From the NCBI RefSeq assembly GCF_003334405.1, contig NZ_QOWM01000017.1: a stretch of DNA of 64,000 nucleotides. One strand, written 5' to 3'. Origin of the DNA: Escherichia coli (lineage in GTDB: Bacteria; Pseudomonadota; Gammaproteobacteria; Enterobacterales; Enterobacteriaceae). The notes below the pieces were generated by a model. The model made no database searches. It was not told the DNA's origin and saw nothing but the letters and a program-made list of their open reading frames with translations. A program made the translations under genes and the position numbers. Shown in pieces: positions 23,445 through 54,680 of this stretch. Each line of letters opens with the position of its first letter. Position 1 is the stretch's first letter.

Positions 23445-24703
23445 GATAAAAACTCTCTTTGGGCTCGTGAAAAAAAGGCGTCATCACCGAAGTTGCCAGA
23501 TTTAAGGGCGAGTGAGACAGGCTTATCCAGTGCGTTTACCCACGGCACGCCGGGGGAAATGGTTGGGCCAATATGAAACCCTTTTATTCCCAGGCTCTGT
23601 GTGACTACGCCGGAGGTCTCACCGCCTGCGACAATAAAGCGTGTCACGCCTTCCGCTGCTAACCGCGCCGCTAGTTGAGAAAACAGTGTTTCTACTGCCT
23701 GACTGGCTTTTTGTGCACCGTATTGCTGTTGAATTGCTGCCAATGCGTCAGTGCTGGCGGTGGCAAAAACCAGTGGAGCAAGTACACTTTCCTGGCCCAG
23801 AACCCACTCTGCCAGTTCGTGTGCATAAGCGGCCAGAGTTTCAATTGAGAGGCAGCGTGCCACATCAACTTCACGGGCTGGTGCAATTTGACGGTAATGT
23901 GCTACCTGGCGGTTGGTCATTTGAGAGCATGAACCGGAGAGCACTACGCCGCGCCCAGCGAGCGGACGCCCTGCTTTGCGAGCCTGGTTACCGTTTTCTT
24001 GCGCCCACTGCCGGGCCAGGCCAATCGCCAGACCAGAACCGCCCGTTACCAGTGGGGCATCGCGCAAGGCTTCTCCCTGAATTTCCAGATGGTGTTCGGT
24101 CAGCGCATCAAGCACCGCGTAGCGGTAGCCCTCTTGCTGTAAGCGAGCCAGCTCTTGACGAACGGCATCCACACCTTGTTCGAAAACATGTGCCGAAACG
24201 ACGCCGCAGCGCCCTGTGGATTGCGCTTCAACCAGACGGGGAAGATAGCTGTCGGTCATGGGATTTACCGGGTGATGGCGCATCCCGGATTCGGCCAGCA
24301 GTTGATTCATTACGAACAAATACCCCTGATAAACCGTACGTCCGTTGACCGGCAGGGCCGGAGAGAAGACCGTAAACGGCGTGTCGAGAGCATCCATTAA
24401 GGCATCGGTAACCGGGCCAATATTACCTTTCGCCGTACTGTCGAAAGTAGAGCAGTATTTGAAATAGATCTGTTTGCAACCTTGCTGTTGCAACCAGCTC
24501 AGAGCCGCCAGCGATTGCTGTGTGGCTTCAACCACTGGACAGGAGCGCGTTTTCAGGCTGATCACCAGTGCGTCGATTGCTTCCGGCATTTTACCTGTTG
24601 GAACACCGTTAATTTGTACCGTTGGTAGACCGTTTTCCACCAGAAAACTGGCGATATCCGTCGCGCCGGTAAAATCATCGGCGATAACGCCAATCTTGAT
24701 CAT
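23441..24703 (-). CDS. ygbK: DUF1537 four-carbon acid-sugar kinase (3-oxo-tetronate kinase, OtnK)
   Basis: 420-aa ORF, N-terminus MIKIGVIADDFTGATD; overlaps neighbours by 4 bp. Confidence 0.85.
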   Translation of the reverse strand: MIKIGVIADDFTGATDIASFLVENGLPTVQINGVPTGKMPEAIDALVISLKTRSCPVVEATQQSLAALSWLQQQGCKQIYFKYCSTFDSTAKGNIGPVTDALMDALDTPFTVFSPALPVNGRTVYQGYLFVMNQLLAESGMRHHPVNPMTDSYLPRLVEAQSTGRCGVVSAHVFEQGVDAVRQELARLQQEGYRYAVLDALTEHHLEIQGEALRDAPLVTGGSGLAIGLARQWAQENGNQARKAGRPLAGRGVVLSGSCSQMTNRQVAHYRQIAPAREVDVARCLSIETLAAYAHELAEWVLGQESVLAPLVFATASTDALAAIQQQYGAQKASQAVETLFSQLAARLAAEGVTRFIVAGGETSGVVTQSLGIKGFHIGPTISPGVPWVNALDKPVSLALKSGNFGDDAFFSRAQREFLS

Positions 24704-25608
24704 GATTTCGCTCCCGGTAGAGTGATGCCAGAGAAAATCTTGATAACTGCGCTATCGTCTTCTTTCCCGTAACCCGCGTTACTGGCGCTGGTGAACATAT
24801 TCAATGCTGTTGAGGCCAATGGCAGCGGGAAGTGCAGGGCTTTGGCTGTATCGGCAACCAGACCAAGATCCTTAACAAAAATATCGACGGCTGAATGCGG
24901 GGTGTAATCGCCATCCACCACATGACGCATCCGGTTTTCGAACATCCAGGAATTTCCGGCGGCATTGGTCACGACGTCATACATCACATCCAGCGGGATC
25001 CCCGCACGGGCTGCAAGTGCCATCGCTTCGGCTCCGGCAGCAATATGTACGCCCGCTAACAACTGGTGAATAATTTTTACGGTCGAACCTAGTCCCGGTT
25101 CTGCACCTATGCGATAAACTTTTCCGGCAACGGCTTCCAGCACGGGTGCCAGTCGTTCAAAGGCAATATCGCTACCGGAGGCCATGATAGTCATTTCACC
25201 GTTAGCGGCTTTTACTGCACCACCAGAAACTGGCGCATCCAGCATTTCCAGATCGAATCCAGCCAGAGCGGTAGCAATTTCTTGCGCATCAGCACTAGCG
25301 ATAGTGGAAGAAACCATTACTGCCGTACCGGGTTTCAGATGTTGTGCAACGCCTGTTTCACCAAACAGCACCTGTTTAACCTGGGCCGCATTGACCACCA
25401 GCACCAGCAGTGCGTCCAGTTTTTCGGCAAACGTCGCGGCGTTATCAGAAACCCCGCAAGCACCTGCCTCTTTCAACGTAGCGCAGGCATTGCTGTTCAG
25501 GTCTGCGCCCCAGGTAGAAAGACCTGCGCGGACACATGACAGTGCTGCTCCCATTCCCATTGACCCTAAGCCAACGATACCGACATGAAACTCAGATCCC
25601 GTTTTCAT
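24700..25608 (-). CDS. ygbJ: NAD-dependent 3-hydroxyisobutyrate-dehydrogenase-like enzyme (L-threonate dehydrogenase, LtnD)
   Basis: 302 aa; Rossmann motif GIVGLGSMGMGAA. Confidence 0.85.
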   Translation of the reverse strand: MKTGSEFHVGIVGLGSMGMGAALSCVRAGLSTWGADLNSNACATLKEAGACGVSDNAATFAEKLDALLVLVVNAAQVKQVLFGETGVAQHLKPGTAVMVSSTIASADAQEIATALAGFDLEMLDAPVSGGAVKAANGEMTIMASGSDIAFERLAPVLEAVAGKVYRIGAEPGLGSTVKIIHQLLAGVHIAAGAEAMALAARAGIPLDVMYDVVTNAAGNSWMFENRMRHVVDGDYTPHSAVDIFVKDLGLVADTAKALHFPLPLASTALNMFTSASNAGYGKEDDSAVIKIFSGITLPGAKS

Positions 25609-36040: not shown

Positions 36041-36391
36041 TCACTCCTGGTCTATTTCTATCCGCCGAATCTGTAAACCGTCGTCTGCCACAATCTGCAG
36101 CATGTCACCATGACACTGTGGACAGCGGCGGACGCGCTGGGTCAGTAGCGTCACATACTGTTGGCATGTTTCACACCAGCATTCGGCCTCTTGTTCTTCG
36201 AGGTGCAGTTTACAACCTTCCGCCACGCTGCCGCGGCAAACCAGATCAAAACAAAAGGCAAGAGAGCTGGTTTCGACACAAGAAAATGCGCCAATTTTGA
36301 GCCAGACCCCAGTTACGCGTTTTGCGCCGTGTTTTGCGGCCTGCTGTTCGATCAATTCCAGTGCCCGTTGGCAGAGGGTTATTTCGTGCAT
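36041..36391 (-). CDS. hypA: Hydrogenase nickel-insertion protein HypA
   Basis: 116 aa from MHEITLCQ; zinc-binding CxxC pairs. Confidence 0.9.
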   Translation of the reverse strand: MHEITLCQRALELIEQQAAKHGAKRVTGVWLKIGAFSCVETSSLAFCFDLVCRGSVAEGCKLHLEEQEAECWCETCQQYVTLLTQRVRRCPQCHGDMLQIVADDGLQIRRIEIDQE

Positions 36392-36422
36392 ATCGCCTCC
36401 CATTAACTATTGCCAGCTACAA

Positions 36423-36438
36423 GCAATAATTGTGCCAG
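36423..36438 (-). promoter_or_regulatory. Sigma-54 promoter of the hyp operon (-24/-12)
   Basis: Minus-strand TGGCAC-aatta-TTGC (plus strand gcaataattgtgccag), upstream of hypA. Confidence 0.7.
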
Positions 36439-36550
36439 TGTTGATTATCCCTGCGGTGAATAATGTCGATGATGTCGAAATGACACGTCGACACGGCGAC
36501 GAAATTCATCTTTAGCTTAAAAATCTCTTTAATAACAATAAATTAAAAGT

Positions 36551-36567
36551 TGGCACAAAAAATGCTT
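36551..36567 (+). promoter_or_regulatory. Sigma-54 promoter of the hyc operon (-24/-12)
   Basis: TGGCAC-aaaaaa-TGCTT upstream of hycA, with GG-N10-GC spacing. Confidence 0.7.
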
Positions 36568-36602
36568 AAAGCTGGCATCTCTGTTAAACGGGTAACCTGA
36601 CA

Positions 36603-37064
36603 ATGACTATTTGGGAAATAAGCGAGAAAGCCGATTACATCGCACAGCGGCATCGTCGCCTACAGGACCAGTGGCACATCTACTGCAATTCGCTGGTTCA
36701 GGGGATCACGTTATCGAAAGCGCGCCTGCATCACGCCATGAGCTGCGCGCCGGACAAAGAACTCTGTTTCGTCCTTTTTGAACATTTTCGCATTTACGTC
36801 ACCCTGGCGGATGGCTTTAACAGCCACACCATCGAGTATTACGTCGAAACAAAAGATGGCGAAGACAAACAGCGGATTGCGCAGGCGCAACTGAGCATTG
36901 ACGGCATGATTGATGGCAAGGTCAACATCCGCGATCGCGAACAGGTTCTGGAACACTATCTCGAAAAAATCGCTGGCGTTTACGACAGCTTATACACCGC
37001 TATTGAAAACAATGTGCCGGTGAATTTAAGCCAACTGGTAAAGGGACAAAGCCCGGCAGCATGA
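36603..37064 (+). CDS. hycA: Formate hydrogenlyase regulatory protein HycA
   Basis: 153 aa; synteny. Confidence 0.9.
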   Translation: MTIWEISEKADYIAQRHRRLQDQWHIYCNSLVQGITLSKARLHHAMSCAPDKELCFVLFEHFRIYVTLADGFNSHTIEYYVETKDGEDKQRIAQAQLSIDGMIDGKVNIRDREQVLEHYLEKIAGVYDSLYTAIENNVPVNLSQLVKGQSPAA

Positions 37065-37188
37065 GCTGAGGCTTTGCCCGTTTTGCAGGCGTTACGCCTG
37101 TTTGGGGATGGGCGTGTCGATGAGTGTCGAAAATGACATTTCATCGGCATGTTTTCGTCAAAAATGACAATCACCTGAGGAATGCCTG

Positions 37189-37800: not shown

Positions 37801-39623
37801 GCGCAATTTCCCTGATCAATAGCGGCGTGGCGTGGTTTGTCGCCGCCGCTGTTCTGGCATTTCTCTTTTCTTTTCAAAAAGCGTTAAGTGGCTGGATAGC
37901 TGGAATTGGCGGCGCGGTTGGTAGTCTGTATACGGCAGCCGCGGGCTTCACTGTACTGACTGGCGCGGTTGGCGTGAGCGGTGCGCTGTCGCTGGTAAGC
38001 TACGATGTGCAAATCTCTCCGCTTAACGCGATTTGGCTGATTACGCTCGGTCTGTGCGGTCTGTTTGTCAGCCTCTACAACATTGACTGGCATCGCCACG
38101 CGCAGGTGAAGTGCAACGGCTTGCAGATCAATATGTTGATGGCTGCCGCCGTCTGCGCCGTCATTGCCAGCAACCTCGGCATGTTCGTGGTAATGGCCGA
38201 AATCATGGCCCTGTGCGCGGTGTTCCTCACCAGCAACAGCAAAGAGGGCAAACTGTGGTTTGCGCTGGGGCGTCTTGGCACTCTGCTGCTGGCGATTGCT
38301 TGCTGGCTGCTGTGGCAGCGTTACGGCACGCTGGATCTGCGCCTGCTGGATATGCGTATGCAACAGCTGCCGCTCGGTTCCGATATCTGGCTGCTCGGAG
38401 TGATTGGCTTTGGCCTGCTGGCCGGGATTATTCCGCTGCACGGCTGGGTGCCGCAGGCACATGCGAACGCCTCTGCGCCAGCTGCCGCGTTGTTTTCTAC
38501 GGTAGTCATGAAAATTGGCCTGCTGGGCATTTTAACCCTGTCACTGCTGGGCGGTAATGCACCGCTGTGGTGGGGGATCGCGCTGCTGGTGCTCGGCATG
38601 ATCACCGCGTTTGTCGGTGGTCTGTATGCGCTGGTGGAGCACAACATCCAGCGCCTGCTGGCTTACCACACCCTGGAAAATATCGGCATCATCCTGCTGG
38701 GGCTGGGCGCTGGCGTAACGGGTATCGCGCTCGAACAACCGGCGCTGATTGCTCTTGGCCTGGTCGGTGGTCTGTACCATCTGCTTAACCATAGCCTGTT
38801 CAAAAGCGTACTGTTCCTCGGGGCGGGGAGCGTCTGGTTCCGTACCGGTCATCGCGATATCGAAAAACTCGGTGGTATTGGCAAGAAAATGCCGGTTATC
38901 TCCATCGCCATGTTAGTCGGGCTGATGGCAATGGCTGCGCTGCCGCCGCTGAATGGTTTTGCCGGGGAATGGGTTATCTATCAATCATTTTTCAAACTGA
39001 GCAATAGTGGCGCGTTTGTTGCCCGTCTGCTGGGGCCGCTGCTCGCTGTGGGGCTGGCAATTACCGGTGCGCTGGCGGTGATGTGTATGGCGAAAGTCTA
39101 TGGCGTCACGTTCCTCGGCGCGCCGCGCACCAAAGAAGCCGAAAACGCCACCTGTGCGCCGCTCCTGATGAGCGTAAGCGTAGTGGCACTGGCGATTTGC
39201 TGCGTAATTGGCGGTGTTGCTGCGCCGTGGCTACTGCCGATGCTCTCTGCTGCTGTACCTCTGCCGCTGGAGCCTGCTAACACCACCGTTTCTCAACCGA
39301 TGATCACGTTGCTGCTGATTGCCTGCCCGCTGCTGCCATTCATCATTATGGCGATTTGCAAAGGCGATCGTTTGCCATCGCGTTCCCGCGGTGCGGCCTG
39401 GGTGTGCGGTTACGACCACGAAAAATCAATGGTGATTACCGCTCACGGTTTTGCCATGCCGGTGAAACAGGCGTTTGCGCCGGTGCTGAAACTACGCAAA
39501 TGGCTGAATCCGGTGTCTCTGGTGCCGGGCTGGCAGTGCGAGGGGAGTGCGTTGCTGTTCCGCCGGATGGCGCTGGTTGAACTGGCGGTACTGGTGGTGA
39601 TTATTGTTTCACGAGGAGCCTGA
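37797..39623 (+). CDS. hycC: Formate hydrogenlyase membrane subunit HycC (NuoL-like)
   Basis: 608-aa polytopic membrane protein. Confidence 0.95.
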   Translation: MSAISLINSGVAWFVAAAVLAFLFSFQKALSGWIAGIGGAVGSLYTAAAGFTVLTGAVGVSGALSLVSYDVQISPLNAIWLITLGLCGLFVSLYNIDWHRHAQVKCNGLQINMLMAAAVCAVIASNLGMFVVMAEIMALCAVFLTSNSKEGKLWFALGRLGTLLLAIACWLLWQRYGTLDLRLLDMRMQQLPLGSDIWLLGVIGFGLLAGIIPLHGWVPQAHANASAPAAALFSTVVMKIGLLGILTLSLLGGNAPLWWGIALLVLGMITAFVGGLYALVEHNIQRLLAYHTLENIGIILLGLGAGVTGIALEQPALIALGLVGGLYHLLNHSLFKSVLFLGAGSVWFRTGHRDIEKLGGIGKKMPVISIAMLVGLMAMAALPPLNGFAGEWVIYQSFFKLSNSGAFVARLLGPLLAVGLAITGALAVMCMAKVYGVTFLGAPRTKEAENATCAPLLMSVSVVALAICCVIGGVAAPWLLPMLSAAVPLPLEPANTTVSQPMITLLLIACPLLPFIIMAICKGDRLPSRSRGAAWVCGYDHEKSMVITAHGFAMPVKQAFAPVLKLRKWLNPVSLVPGWQCEGSALLFRRMALVELAVLVVIIVSRGA

Positions 39624-40566: not shown

Positions 40567-42276
40567 ATGTCTGAAGAAAAATTAGGTCAACATTATCTCG
40601 CCGCGCTGAATGAGGCATTTCCGGGCGTCGTGCTGGACCACGCCTGGCAGACCAAAGATCAGCTGACTGTCACCGTAAAGGTGAACTACCTGCCGGAAGT
40701 GGTGGAGTTTCTTTACTACAAACAGGGTGGCTGGCTGTCGGTGCTGTTTGGTAACGACGAACGCAAACTGAATGGTCATTACGCCGTTTACTACGTGCTG
40801 TCGATGGAGAAGGGCACTAAGTGTTGGATTACGGTTCGCGTCGAAGTTGACGCCAACAAACCGGAATATCCGTCCGTGACGCCGCGCGTTCCGGCGGCGG
40901 TGTGGGGCGAGCGTGAAGTGCGCGATATGTACGGTTTGATTCCGGTTGGTCTGCCGGATGAACGTCGTCTGGTGCTGCCGGATGACTGGCCGGATGAACT
41001 TTATCCGCTGCGTAAAGACAGCATGGATTATCGTCAGCGTCCGGCACCGACCACCGATGCTGAAACCTACGAGTTCATCAACGAACTGGGCGACAAGAAA
41101 AACAACGTCGTGCCGATTGGTCCGCTGCACGTCACTTCTGATGAACCGGGCCACTTCCGTCTGTTCGTCGATGGCGAAAACATTATCGACGCCGACTACC
41201 GTCTGTTCTACGTCCATCGCGGCATGGAAAAACTGGCGGAAACCCGTATGGGTTATAACGAAGTGACCTTCCTCTCTGACCGTGTGTGCGGGATCTGCGG
41301 CTTTGCCCACAGCACCGCCTACACCACGTCGGTGGAAAACGCGATGGGTATTCAGGTGCCAGAACGTGCGCAGATGATCCGCGCCATTCTGCTGGAGGTA
41401 GAACGCTTGCACTCGCATCTGCTCAACCTTGGCCTGGCCTGTCACTTTACCGGCTTCGACTCCGGCTTTATGCAGTTCTTCCGCGTGCGTGAAACCTCCA
41501 TGAAAATGGCAGAGATCCTTACCGGTGCGCGTAAAACCTACGGCCTGAACTTGATCGGCGGGATTCGTCGCGATCTGCTGAAAGACGACATGATCCAGAC
41601 CCGCCAGCTGGCACAACAGATGCGTCGTGAAGTGCAGGAGCTGGTGGATGTGCTGCTGAGCACTCCGAACATGGAACAGCGCACTGTCGGCATTGGTCGT
41701 CTGGACCCGGAAATCGCTCGCGACTTCAGTAACGTCGGCCCGATGGTCCGTGCCAGCGGTCACGCCCGTGATACCCGCGCCGATCACCCGTTTGTCGGCT
41801 ATGGCCTGCTGCCAATGGAAGTCCACAGCGAGCAGGGCTGCGACGTTATTTCCCGTCTGAAAGTGCGTATCAACGAAGTCTATACCGCGCTGAACATGAT
41901 CGACTACGGTCTGGATAACCTGCCGGGTGGCCCACTGATGGTGGAAGGCTTTACCTACATTCCGCACCGCTTTGCGCTGGGCTTTGCCGAAGCGCCGCGC
42001 GGCGATGATATCCACTGGAGCATGACCGGCGACAACCAGAAGCTGTACCGCTGGCGCTGCCGTGCCGCGACCTACGCGAACTGGCCGACCCTGCGCTACA
42101 TGCTGCGCGGCAACACCGTTTCCGATGCGCCGCTGATTATCGGTAGCCTCGACCCTTGCTACTCCTGTACCGACCGCATGACCGTGGTCGATGTGCGTAA
42201 GAAGAAGAGCAAAGTGGTGCCGTACAAAGAACTCGAGCGTTACAGCATTGAGCGTAAAAACTCGCCGCTGAAATAA
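40567..42276 (+). CDS. hycE: Hydrogenase 3 large subunit HycE
   Basis: 569 aa from MSEEKLGQHY; NiFe-binding Cys motifs (RVCGICGFAH; C-terminal DPCYSCTDR). Confidence 0.95.
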   Translation: MSEEKLGQHYLAALNEAFPGVVLDHAWQTKDQLTVTVKVNYLPEVVEFLYYKQGGWLSVLFGNDERKLNGHYAVYYVLSMEKGTKCWITVRVEVDANKPEYPSVTPRVPAAVWGEREVRDMYGLIPVGLPDERRLVLPDDWPDELYPLRKDSMDYRQRPAPTTDAETYEFINELGDKKNNVVPIGPLHVTSDEPGHFRLFVDGENIIDADYRLFYVHRGMEKLAETRMGYNEVTFLSDRVCGICGFAHSTAYTTSVENAMGIQVPERAQMIRAILLEVERLHSHLLNLGLACHFTGFDSGFMQFFRVRETSMKMAEILTGARKTYGLNLIGGIRRDLLKDDMIQTRQLAQQMRREVQELVDVLLSTPNMEQRTVGIGRLDPEIARDFSNVGPMVRASGHARDTRADHPFVGYGLLPMEVHSEQGCDVISRLKVRINEVYTALNMIDYGLDNLPGGPLMVEGFTYIPHRFALGFAEAPRGDDIHWSMTGDNQKLYRWRCRAATYANWPTLRYMLRGNTVSDAPLIIGSLDPCYSCTDRMTVVDVRKKKSKVVPYKELERYSIERKNSPLK

Positions 42277-48784: not shown

Positions 48785-48797
48785 ACATTGTCATCAC

Positions 48798-48832
48798 ATG
48801 TCATCGTCACTAGTGTCGATGACATCGTTTTT
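48798..48832 (+). terminator. ascG rho-independent terminator
   Basis: atgtcatcg ... cgatgacat hairpin followed by cgttttt. Confidence 0.6.
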
Positions 48833-48932
48833 CCTGCATTACAGAAATTAATTTCCTTAAATAACAGTAAATTAAAAACTGGCATGATTTGTGAATGTAT
48901 CGGCGCATTAACTGTCATTGCTGGAGAATTTG

Positions 48933-54609: not shown

Positions 54610-54625
54610 TGCAGATTGCGTGCCA
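54610..54625 (-). promoter_or_regulatory. Sigma-54 promoter of norVW (-24/-12)
   Basis: Minus-strand TGGCACG-caat-CTGCA (plus strand tgcagattgcgtgcca), about 50 bp upstream of the norV start. Confidence 0.7.
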
Positions 54626-54680
54626 GTTTTTTATCTGATTGTTTTTACTCTATAAATAAAATTATGCCCATTAATGAGTA

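Follow-up and report, generated by a model that had tools for sequence, protein, structure and literature searches.

The two promoters that face away from each other between hypA and hycA of Escherichia coli were reportedly first described by Lutz et al. in 1990, under the name of 'divergent NtrA-dependent promoters', with a transcription start that is said to lie some 12 nt beyond the GC and to be lost in an rpoN mutant. Later, both sites were recovered by sigma-54 ChIP-seq in E. coli K-12, where CTGGCACAATTATTGCT is tabulated as OS28 (hypA, distance 20, FAT 201), with the top PSSM score among the tabulated intergenic sites, and TTGGCACAAAAAATGCT as OS27 (hycA, distance 26, FAT 91). Both rank among the strongest sigma-54 sites tabulated, both carry the flag 'C' for EcoCyc promoters with experimental confirmation, and FhlA is stated in the same study to activate hypA transcription (Bonocora et al. 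2015, PMC4591121). Purified RpoN holoenzyme also gives a peak within the hycA/hypA spacer in genomic SELEX (PMC8743547), and an FNR ChIP-seq study lists hyc as a sigma-N site with no sigma-70 ChIP peak (PMC3688515). In Salmonella Typhimurium, the hycA/hypA sites TGGCATGGAAAATGCTTA and TGGCATAAATATTGCTTT are bound by sigma-54 in ChIP-chip experiments and are sigma-54-dependent (Samuels et al. 2013, PMC3844500). The promoter pair is already known in full. Its architecture combines two sigma-54 promoters with an FhlA enhancer that is shared or duplicated, an IHF bend, and genes for an activator and an anti-activator placed in the two operons; the literature has contained it since 1990, and genome-wide studies have confirmed it again.

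The locus and its host

The locus analysed here lies within a 64-kb stretch of E. coli DNA, referred to as the window. A divergent spacer of 211 bp (36392-36602) separates hypA (36041-36391, minus strand, 116 aa), the first gene of hypABCDE-fhlA, from hycA (36603-37064, plus strand, 153 aa), the first gene of hycABCDEFGHI, which encodes an antagonist of FhlA. PGAP annotates two coding genes only in the hypA-hycA region, and an Rfam search of the whole window for structured RNA gave 0 hits. Every base of the spacer is the same in MG1655, and the surrounding DNA (25038-49038) aligns to that genome free of gaps at 99.98% identity, with 5 mismatches in these 24 kb; positions convert as MG1655 position = 2,887,038 - window position. 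Since the spacer is identical to that of MG1655, the published sigma-54 binding in vivo and in vitro, as well as the FhlA dependence, are taken over from the literature for the sequence in hand. The first-pass annotation of this DNA, which had proposed FhlA-activated divergent transcription from two sigma-54 promoters, matches the published binding and FhlA activation on the identical MG1655 sequence.

The hypA-hycA region occurs in each of the 5426 complete E. coli genomes that were searched. One of them, E. coli FDAARGOS_1288, carries an IS5 element in the hyp leader with the break at about 36396, placing the insertion between the predicted hyp start (36411) and the hypA ATG. Elsewhere in the window the relationship to K-12 is more distant. 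For the segment from cas3 to cas2 (1-8577), blastn at E<=1e-30 finds no match in the type I-E cas operon of K-12, and the adjoining segment (8578-25138) reaches only 98% identity to K-12, with many gaps. The lack of a K-12 match for the cas genes, together with the divergence of the adjoining DNA, indicates that the host is a non-K-12 strain carrying the other cas/CRISPR variant of E. coli.

A further claim, that the whole regulon is intact in the window, stands in part. The 17 genes named in it (fhlA, hypA-E, hycA-I, hydN, and hypF) all have full-length translations with no internal stops. The expression 'whole regulon' goes too far, as two further FhlA/sigma-54 targets, fdhF and the hyf operon, sit elsewhere on the chromosome.

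Two -24/-12 elements back to back

The hypA-facing element, CTGGCACAATTATTGCT, occupies 36438..36422 on the minus strand, with GG at 36436/36435 and GC at 36424/36423 in the canonical GG-N10-GC spacing. The minus-strand TGGCAC-N5-TTGC that had been noted as facing hypA is indeed present as an exact TGGCAC-AATTA-TTGC at 36437..36423, within 1 nt of where it had been placed. Its predicted +1 (36411) leaves a 20-nt leader before the hypA ATG, which equals the distance tabulated for OS28. The hycA-facing element, TTGGCACAAAAAATGCT, occupies 36550-36566 on the plus strand, again with canonical spacing between GG (36552/36553) and GC (36564/36565). Here, a plus-strand TGGCAC-N6-TGCTT had been reported, and it reads TGGCAC-AAAAAA-TGCTT at 36551-36567, its coordinates being right within 1 nt; rewritten as TGGCAC-N5-ATGC, the motif differs by one mismatch from the TTGC form. 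The predicted +1 at 36577 gives a 26-nt leader before the hycA ATG, equal to the distance tabulated for OS27. Both sites thereby display what the sigma-54 class requires, i.e., GG and GC exactly 10 nt apart within a match to YTGGCACGrNNNTTGCW, and the proper orientation at a short distance from the downstream gene.

A bare pattern count is uninformative in this setting: the window holds 10 copies of TGGCAC-N5-TTGC at <=1 mismatch where 8.3 are expected, which is no enrichment. A PSSM and simulated windows were therefore used in its place, the matrix being derived from 38 published E. coli intergenic sites with hyc, hyp, and two other sites located in the window left out. The hyp promoter scores 21.15 bits and ranks first in the 64-kb window, a score reached in 0 of 100 simulated windows. 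The hyc promoter ranks third with 17.19 bits, a score at which 0.21 chance sites are expected per window and 3.5e-4 per 211-bp strand. Rank 2 is held by the norV sigma-54 promoter CTGGCACGCAATCTGCA (54610-54626, minus strand, 18.07 bits) in the divergent norR-norV spacer, which corresponds to the published site OS25.

Conservation was followed in species-representative genomes, in which a HycA scan retrieved 80 loci from Escherichia, Citrobacter, Salmonella, Enterobacter, Klebsiella, Raoultella, Kluyvera, Kosakonia, Lelliottia, and other genera; the footprint alignment comprises 36 of these loci, equivalent to 36 species in about 15 genera. Throughout this alignment, every locus has TGGCA and TTGC in the hyp promoter and TGGCA and TGCT in the hyc promoter, while the bases between the -24 and -12 elements are 33-58% conserved, compared with about 51-55% for the neighbouring spacer DNA. 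Invariant cores combined with drifting spacers constitute the footprint expected of a -24/-12 promoter. By PSSM, both promoters are kept in all 80 loci: the best hyp-facing site never falls below 16.8 bits, and the best hyc-facing site has a minimum of 11.3 and a median of 15.6 bits. Geometry is maintained as well, the centre of the hyc motif lying 43-46 nt from the hycA ATG in 80/80 loci and the centres of the two motifs being 106-130 bp apart.

Two side observations concern the DNA next to the core elements. The hycA 5' leader (36567-36602, TCTCTGTTAAACGGGTAACCTGACA) is unusually conserved for untranslated DNA, with many columns more than 90% identical across about 15 genera. The two promoters also resemble each other beyond their -24/-12 elements, forming a 27-nt inverted repeat (36411-36437 and 36551-36577) of 81% complementarity that ends in AGCTGGCA at both promoters, with the final A on each predicted +1. 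A shared extra operator was considered for this extended similarity and rejected, the extension being confined to Escherichia and not conserved beyond it.

The least tenable explanation for the two motifs, namely that A/T-rich intergenic DNA yielded them by chance and that sigma-70 drives the operons, can draw on the unenriched pattern count and on a hyc 15-mer that is unremarkable when taken alone, but it is refuted by conservation and binding data and has virtually no chance of being right, given PSSM scores far above expectation, core bases that stay invariant across 80 species representatives while spacers drift, published sigma-54 ChIP-seq and gSELEX signals on the identical sequence, the absence of a sigma-70 ChIP peak at hyc, and a search of the spacer for sigma-70-like promoters that returned a single 9/12 hexamer pair (plus strand, 36403-36430), the number expected by chance.

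More weight attaches to the possibility that sigma-54 binding is real but that one of the sites is unproductive, holding a poised or occluding complex, so that the operon, most plausibly hyp, is transcribed mainly from another promoter. Expression of hyp depends on FNR too (PMC3149613), and an FNR summit has been located by ChIP-seq just inside hypA, at about 36372 (PMC3688515). This summit, published at 2,848,688 (old MG1655 coordinates) and assigned to hyc, maps about 19 bp inside hypA; it is a better fit to an FNR-dependent internal hypBCDE promoter than to regulation of hyc. An internal promoter of this kind has reportedly been described. Several observations speak against an unproductive site. 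Both sites bear the flag for experimentally confirmed promoters, and the activation of hypA by FhlA is stated in the same source (PMC4591121); published arrays show an increase in hypA transcript from the hyp site; and in Salmonella, an active enhancer-binding protein raises hypABCDE 5.6-fold and hyc 26-fold in an rpoN+ and not in an rpoN- background (PMC3844500). Furthermore, an internal promoter would add to PhypA rather than replace it, being unable to express hypA. We consider an unproductive site at either position exceedingly unlikely.

The window contains additional sigma-54-like sites within hyc genes. One of them, located in hycC (GTGGCGCGTTTGTTGCC, 39007-39023, plus strand), corresponds to the published site IS31, and another in hycE (CTGGCACAACAGATGCG, 41608-41624, plus strand, 14.0 bits) is absent from the published table. 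The highest-scoring internal site lies in hycA (GTGGCACATCTACTGCA, 36671-36687, plus strand, 16.1 bits, rank 4) and is absent from the published sigma-54 ChIP-seq tables and supplements. Its motif is carried by an invariant peptide, W-x-x-Y-C-N. The Cys codon at the -12 position is TGC in 61/80 loci versus 119/168 at the other hycA Cys codons, and for the preceding Tyr codon TAC is favoured, which is the poorer match to the consensus; across the synonymous positions of the site there is no bias toward the sigma-54 consensus. Being unpublished, peptide-borne, and unbiased at synonymous positions, the site was rejected as a conserved promoter and is read as a coding coincidence. ChIP-seq might miss it, as it is situated about 120 bp from two of the genome's strongest peaks, and we regard it as very unlikely that the site has genuine, if weak, sigma-54 binding or promoter activity. 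If it had, its transcripts would provide HycB-I without full-length HycA, the FhlA antagonist, and the output of the structural genes would no longer be tied to negative feedback.

Enhancer-like repeats and a putative bend site

Between the two promoters, repeated TGTCG/TGACA/CGACA pentamers form a cluster (TGTCGATGATGTCGAAATGACACGTCGACA, 36464-36493) that resembles an FhlA upstream activating sequence (UAS) and represents a putative enhancer. Its centre precedes the hyc +1 by about 99 bp and, in the opposite direction, the hyp +1 by about 67 bp; relative to the hyc +1, the cluster falls within the range of about 70-130 bp upstream in which FhlA promoters require a UAS of the shared type. Across genera, 11 of 29 columns are invariant in the cluster (36463-36491) compared with 0/24 in the adjacent spacer. 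A unit of 22-24 nt, TGTCGATGA(N)TGTCGAAA(N)TGACA, has only two occurrences in the 64-kb window. The first-pass annotation had suggested looking for FhlA upstream activating sequences in the DNA between the promoters, and this conserved TGTCG/TGACA cluster is what the search brought to light; from its sequence we infer that FhlA binds there.

A 16-mer consensus for FhlA, CATTTCGTACGAAATG (Leonhartsberger 2000), is quoted in a review (PMC4987338). Scanned as a contiguous word, CATTTCGTACGAAATG has no match at <=6 mismatches in the spacer, and the published 16-mer was dropped as a detector for that reason. Only a half-site of the consensus, CGAAATG, is found in the spacer at 36477-36483, and the best nearby match to the complete word, GTTTTCGTCAAAAATG (37151-37166), has 5 mismatches. 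The assignment of a candidate enhancer is founded on the repeats, the paralogous comparison, and the conservation rather than on the CATTTCGTACGAAATG consensus.

A second enhancer-like element is located in the hycA-hycB spacer (37115-37168), where it is composed of TGTCGATGAGTGTCGAAAATGACA (37115-37138) and TTTCGTCAAAAATGAC (37153-37168) and precedes the hyp +1 by about 700-760 bp. Its TGTCGA and TTTCGTCAAAAATGAC are invariant in 30 enterobacterial species. The element is probably a remote FhlA site for hyp. A role of this distal element as the hyp enhancer was reportedly described by Schlensog et al. in 1994. In the open-access literature searched, no statement came up as to which enhancer acts on hyp.

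The segment between the enhancer-like cluster and the hyc promoter includes a conserved A/T-rich block (36527-36549), and within it an IHF-like site, TAACAATAAATTA (36533-36545, plus strand), which agrees with WATCAANNNNTTR at 1 mismatch. The exact IHF site at hyc was reportedly published by Hopper et al. in 1994. The site TAACAATAAATTA is the sole match in the spacer at <=1 mismatch, and most other genera have a perfect AATCAATnnnTTA / AATCAAnnnnTTA at this position. A role for IHF at hyc is documented (PMC2636881).

Regulatory logic and related promoter pairs

Taken together, the two motifs almost certainly represent a back-to-back pair of sigma-54 (RpoN) promoters that are opened by FhlA and belong to the formate hydrogenlyase cluster of E. 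coli, and evidence contradicting the sigma-54 promoter explanation was not found in this analysis. PhypA would transcribe leftward into hypABCDE-fhlA and PhycA rightward into hycABCDEFGHI. On each -24/-12 element, RNA polymerase-sigma-54 is expected to form a closed complex that would be unable to start alone. As formate builds up, FhlA, an enhancer-binding ATPase, would occupy TGTCG/TGACA-type upstream sites, reach the polymerase by DNA looping, and spend ATP in opening the promoter. For hyc, the spacer cluster would serve as enhancer from about 100 bp upstream, the intervening IHF bend site presumably aiding the looping; for hyp, it may be the same spacer cluster or the second copy beyond hycA. 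The start sites, 36411 and 36577, are predicted, as is the pairing of enhancers with promoters. The hyp operon ends with fhlA, and the hyc operon begins with hycA. Since fhlA and hycA are products of the two operons, the unit would comprise a positive loop through FhlA and a negative one through HycA. Fermentative hydrogen production in E. coli is under the control of this promoter pair. The value of its recovery here is that of a positive control only, a classic enhancer-dependent promoter pair having been recognised from raw sequence, and nothing new follows from it.

Promoters of the same regulon share the layout to a large extent. At the hydN-hypF, fdhF, and hyfA promoters, too, a -24/-12 element precedes the gene by 25-45 nt, and TGTCG/TGACA/CGTCA pentamers are clustered about 60-130 bp upstream; a similar pentamer cluster is present upstream of fdhF in MG1655, and the TGTCA/TGTCG cluster upstream of hydN spans 48788-48825 of the window. 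All three are single promoters, in contrast to the back-to-back pair of hyc and hyp. The hydN-hypF promoter CTGGCATGATTTGTGAA (48879-48895), the published site OS26, also lies in the window. Its -12 element is degenerate (TGTGAA), its PSSM score is low and outside the top 15 of the window, and its ChIP signal (FAT 11, versus 91 for hyc and 201 for hyp) is about 10-20 times weaker.

With respect to the back-to-back arrangement, zraP/zraSR (OS38/OS39) is comparable, having two sigma-54 promoters in a short spacer (Bonocora et al. 2015, PMC4591121). The motif centres are about 155 bp apart in zraP/zraSR versus 128 bp in hyc/hyp, and in both systems one operon encodes the cognate enhancer-binding protein. 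The zraP/zraSR pair differs in its activator, ZraR, in its signal, which is zinc or envelope stress, and in having no known anti-activator gene. To our knowledge, it has no second remote enhancer. Closer still are the Salmonella Typhimurium hycA/hypA promoters, which are orthologous to those of the window in position, orientation, and core bases; they deviate in carrying TGGCAT instead of TGGCAC at -24 and in the bases of the spacer. The E. coli K-12 promoters hycAp and hypAp (OS27/OS28), finally, are the same in every respect tested, with an identical 211-bp spacer and identical 17-mers, and K-12 is distinguished from the host of the window outside the hypA-hycA region, by the few mismatches in the flanking 24 kb and by the other cas region at 1-8577.
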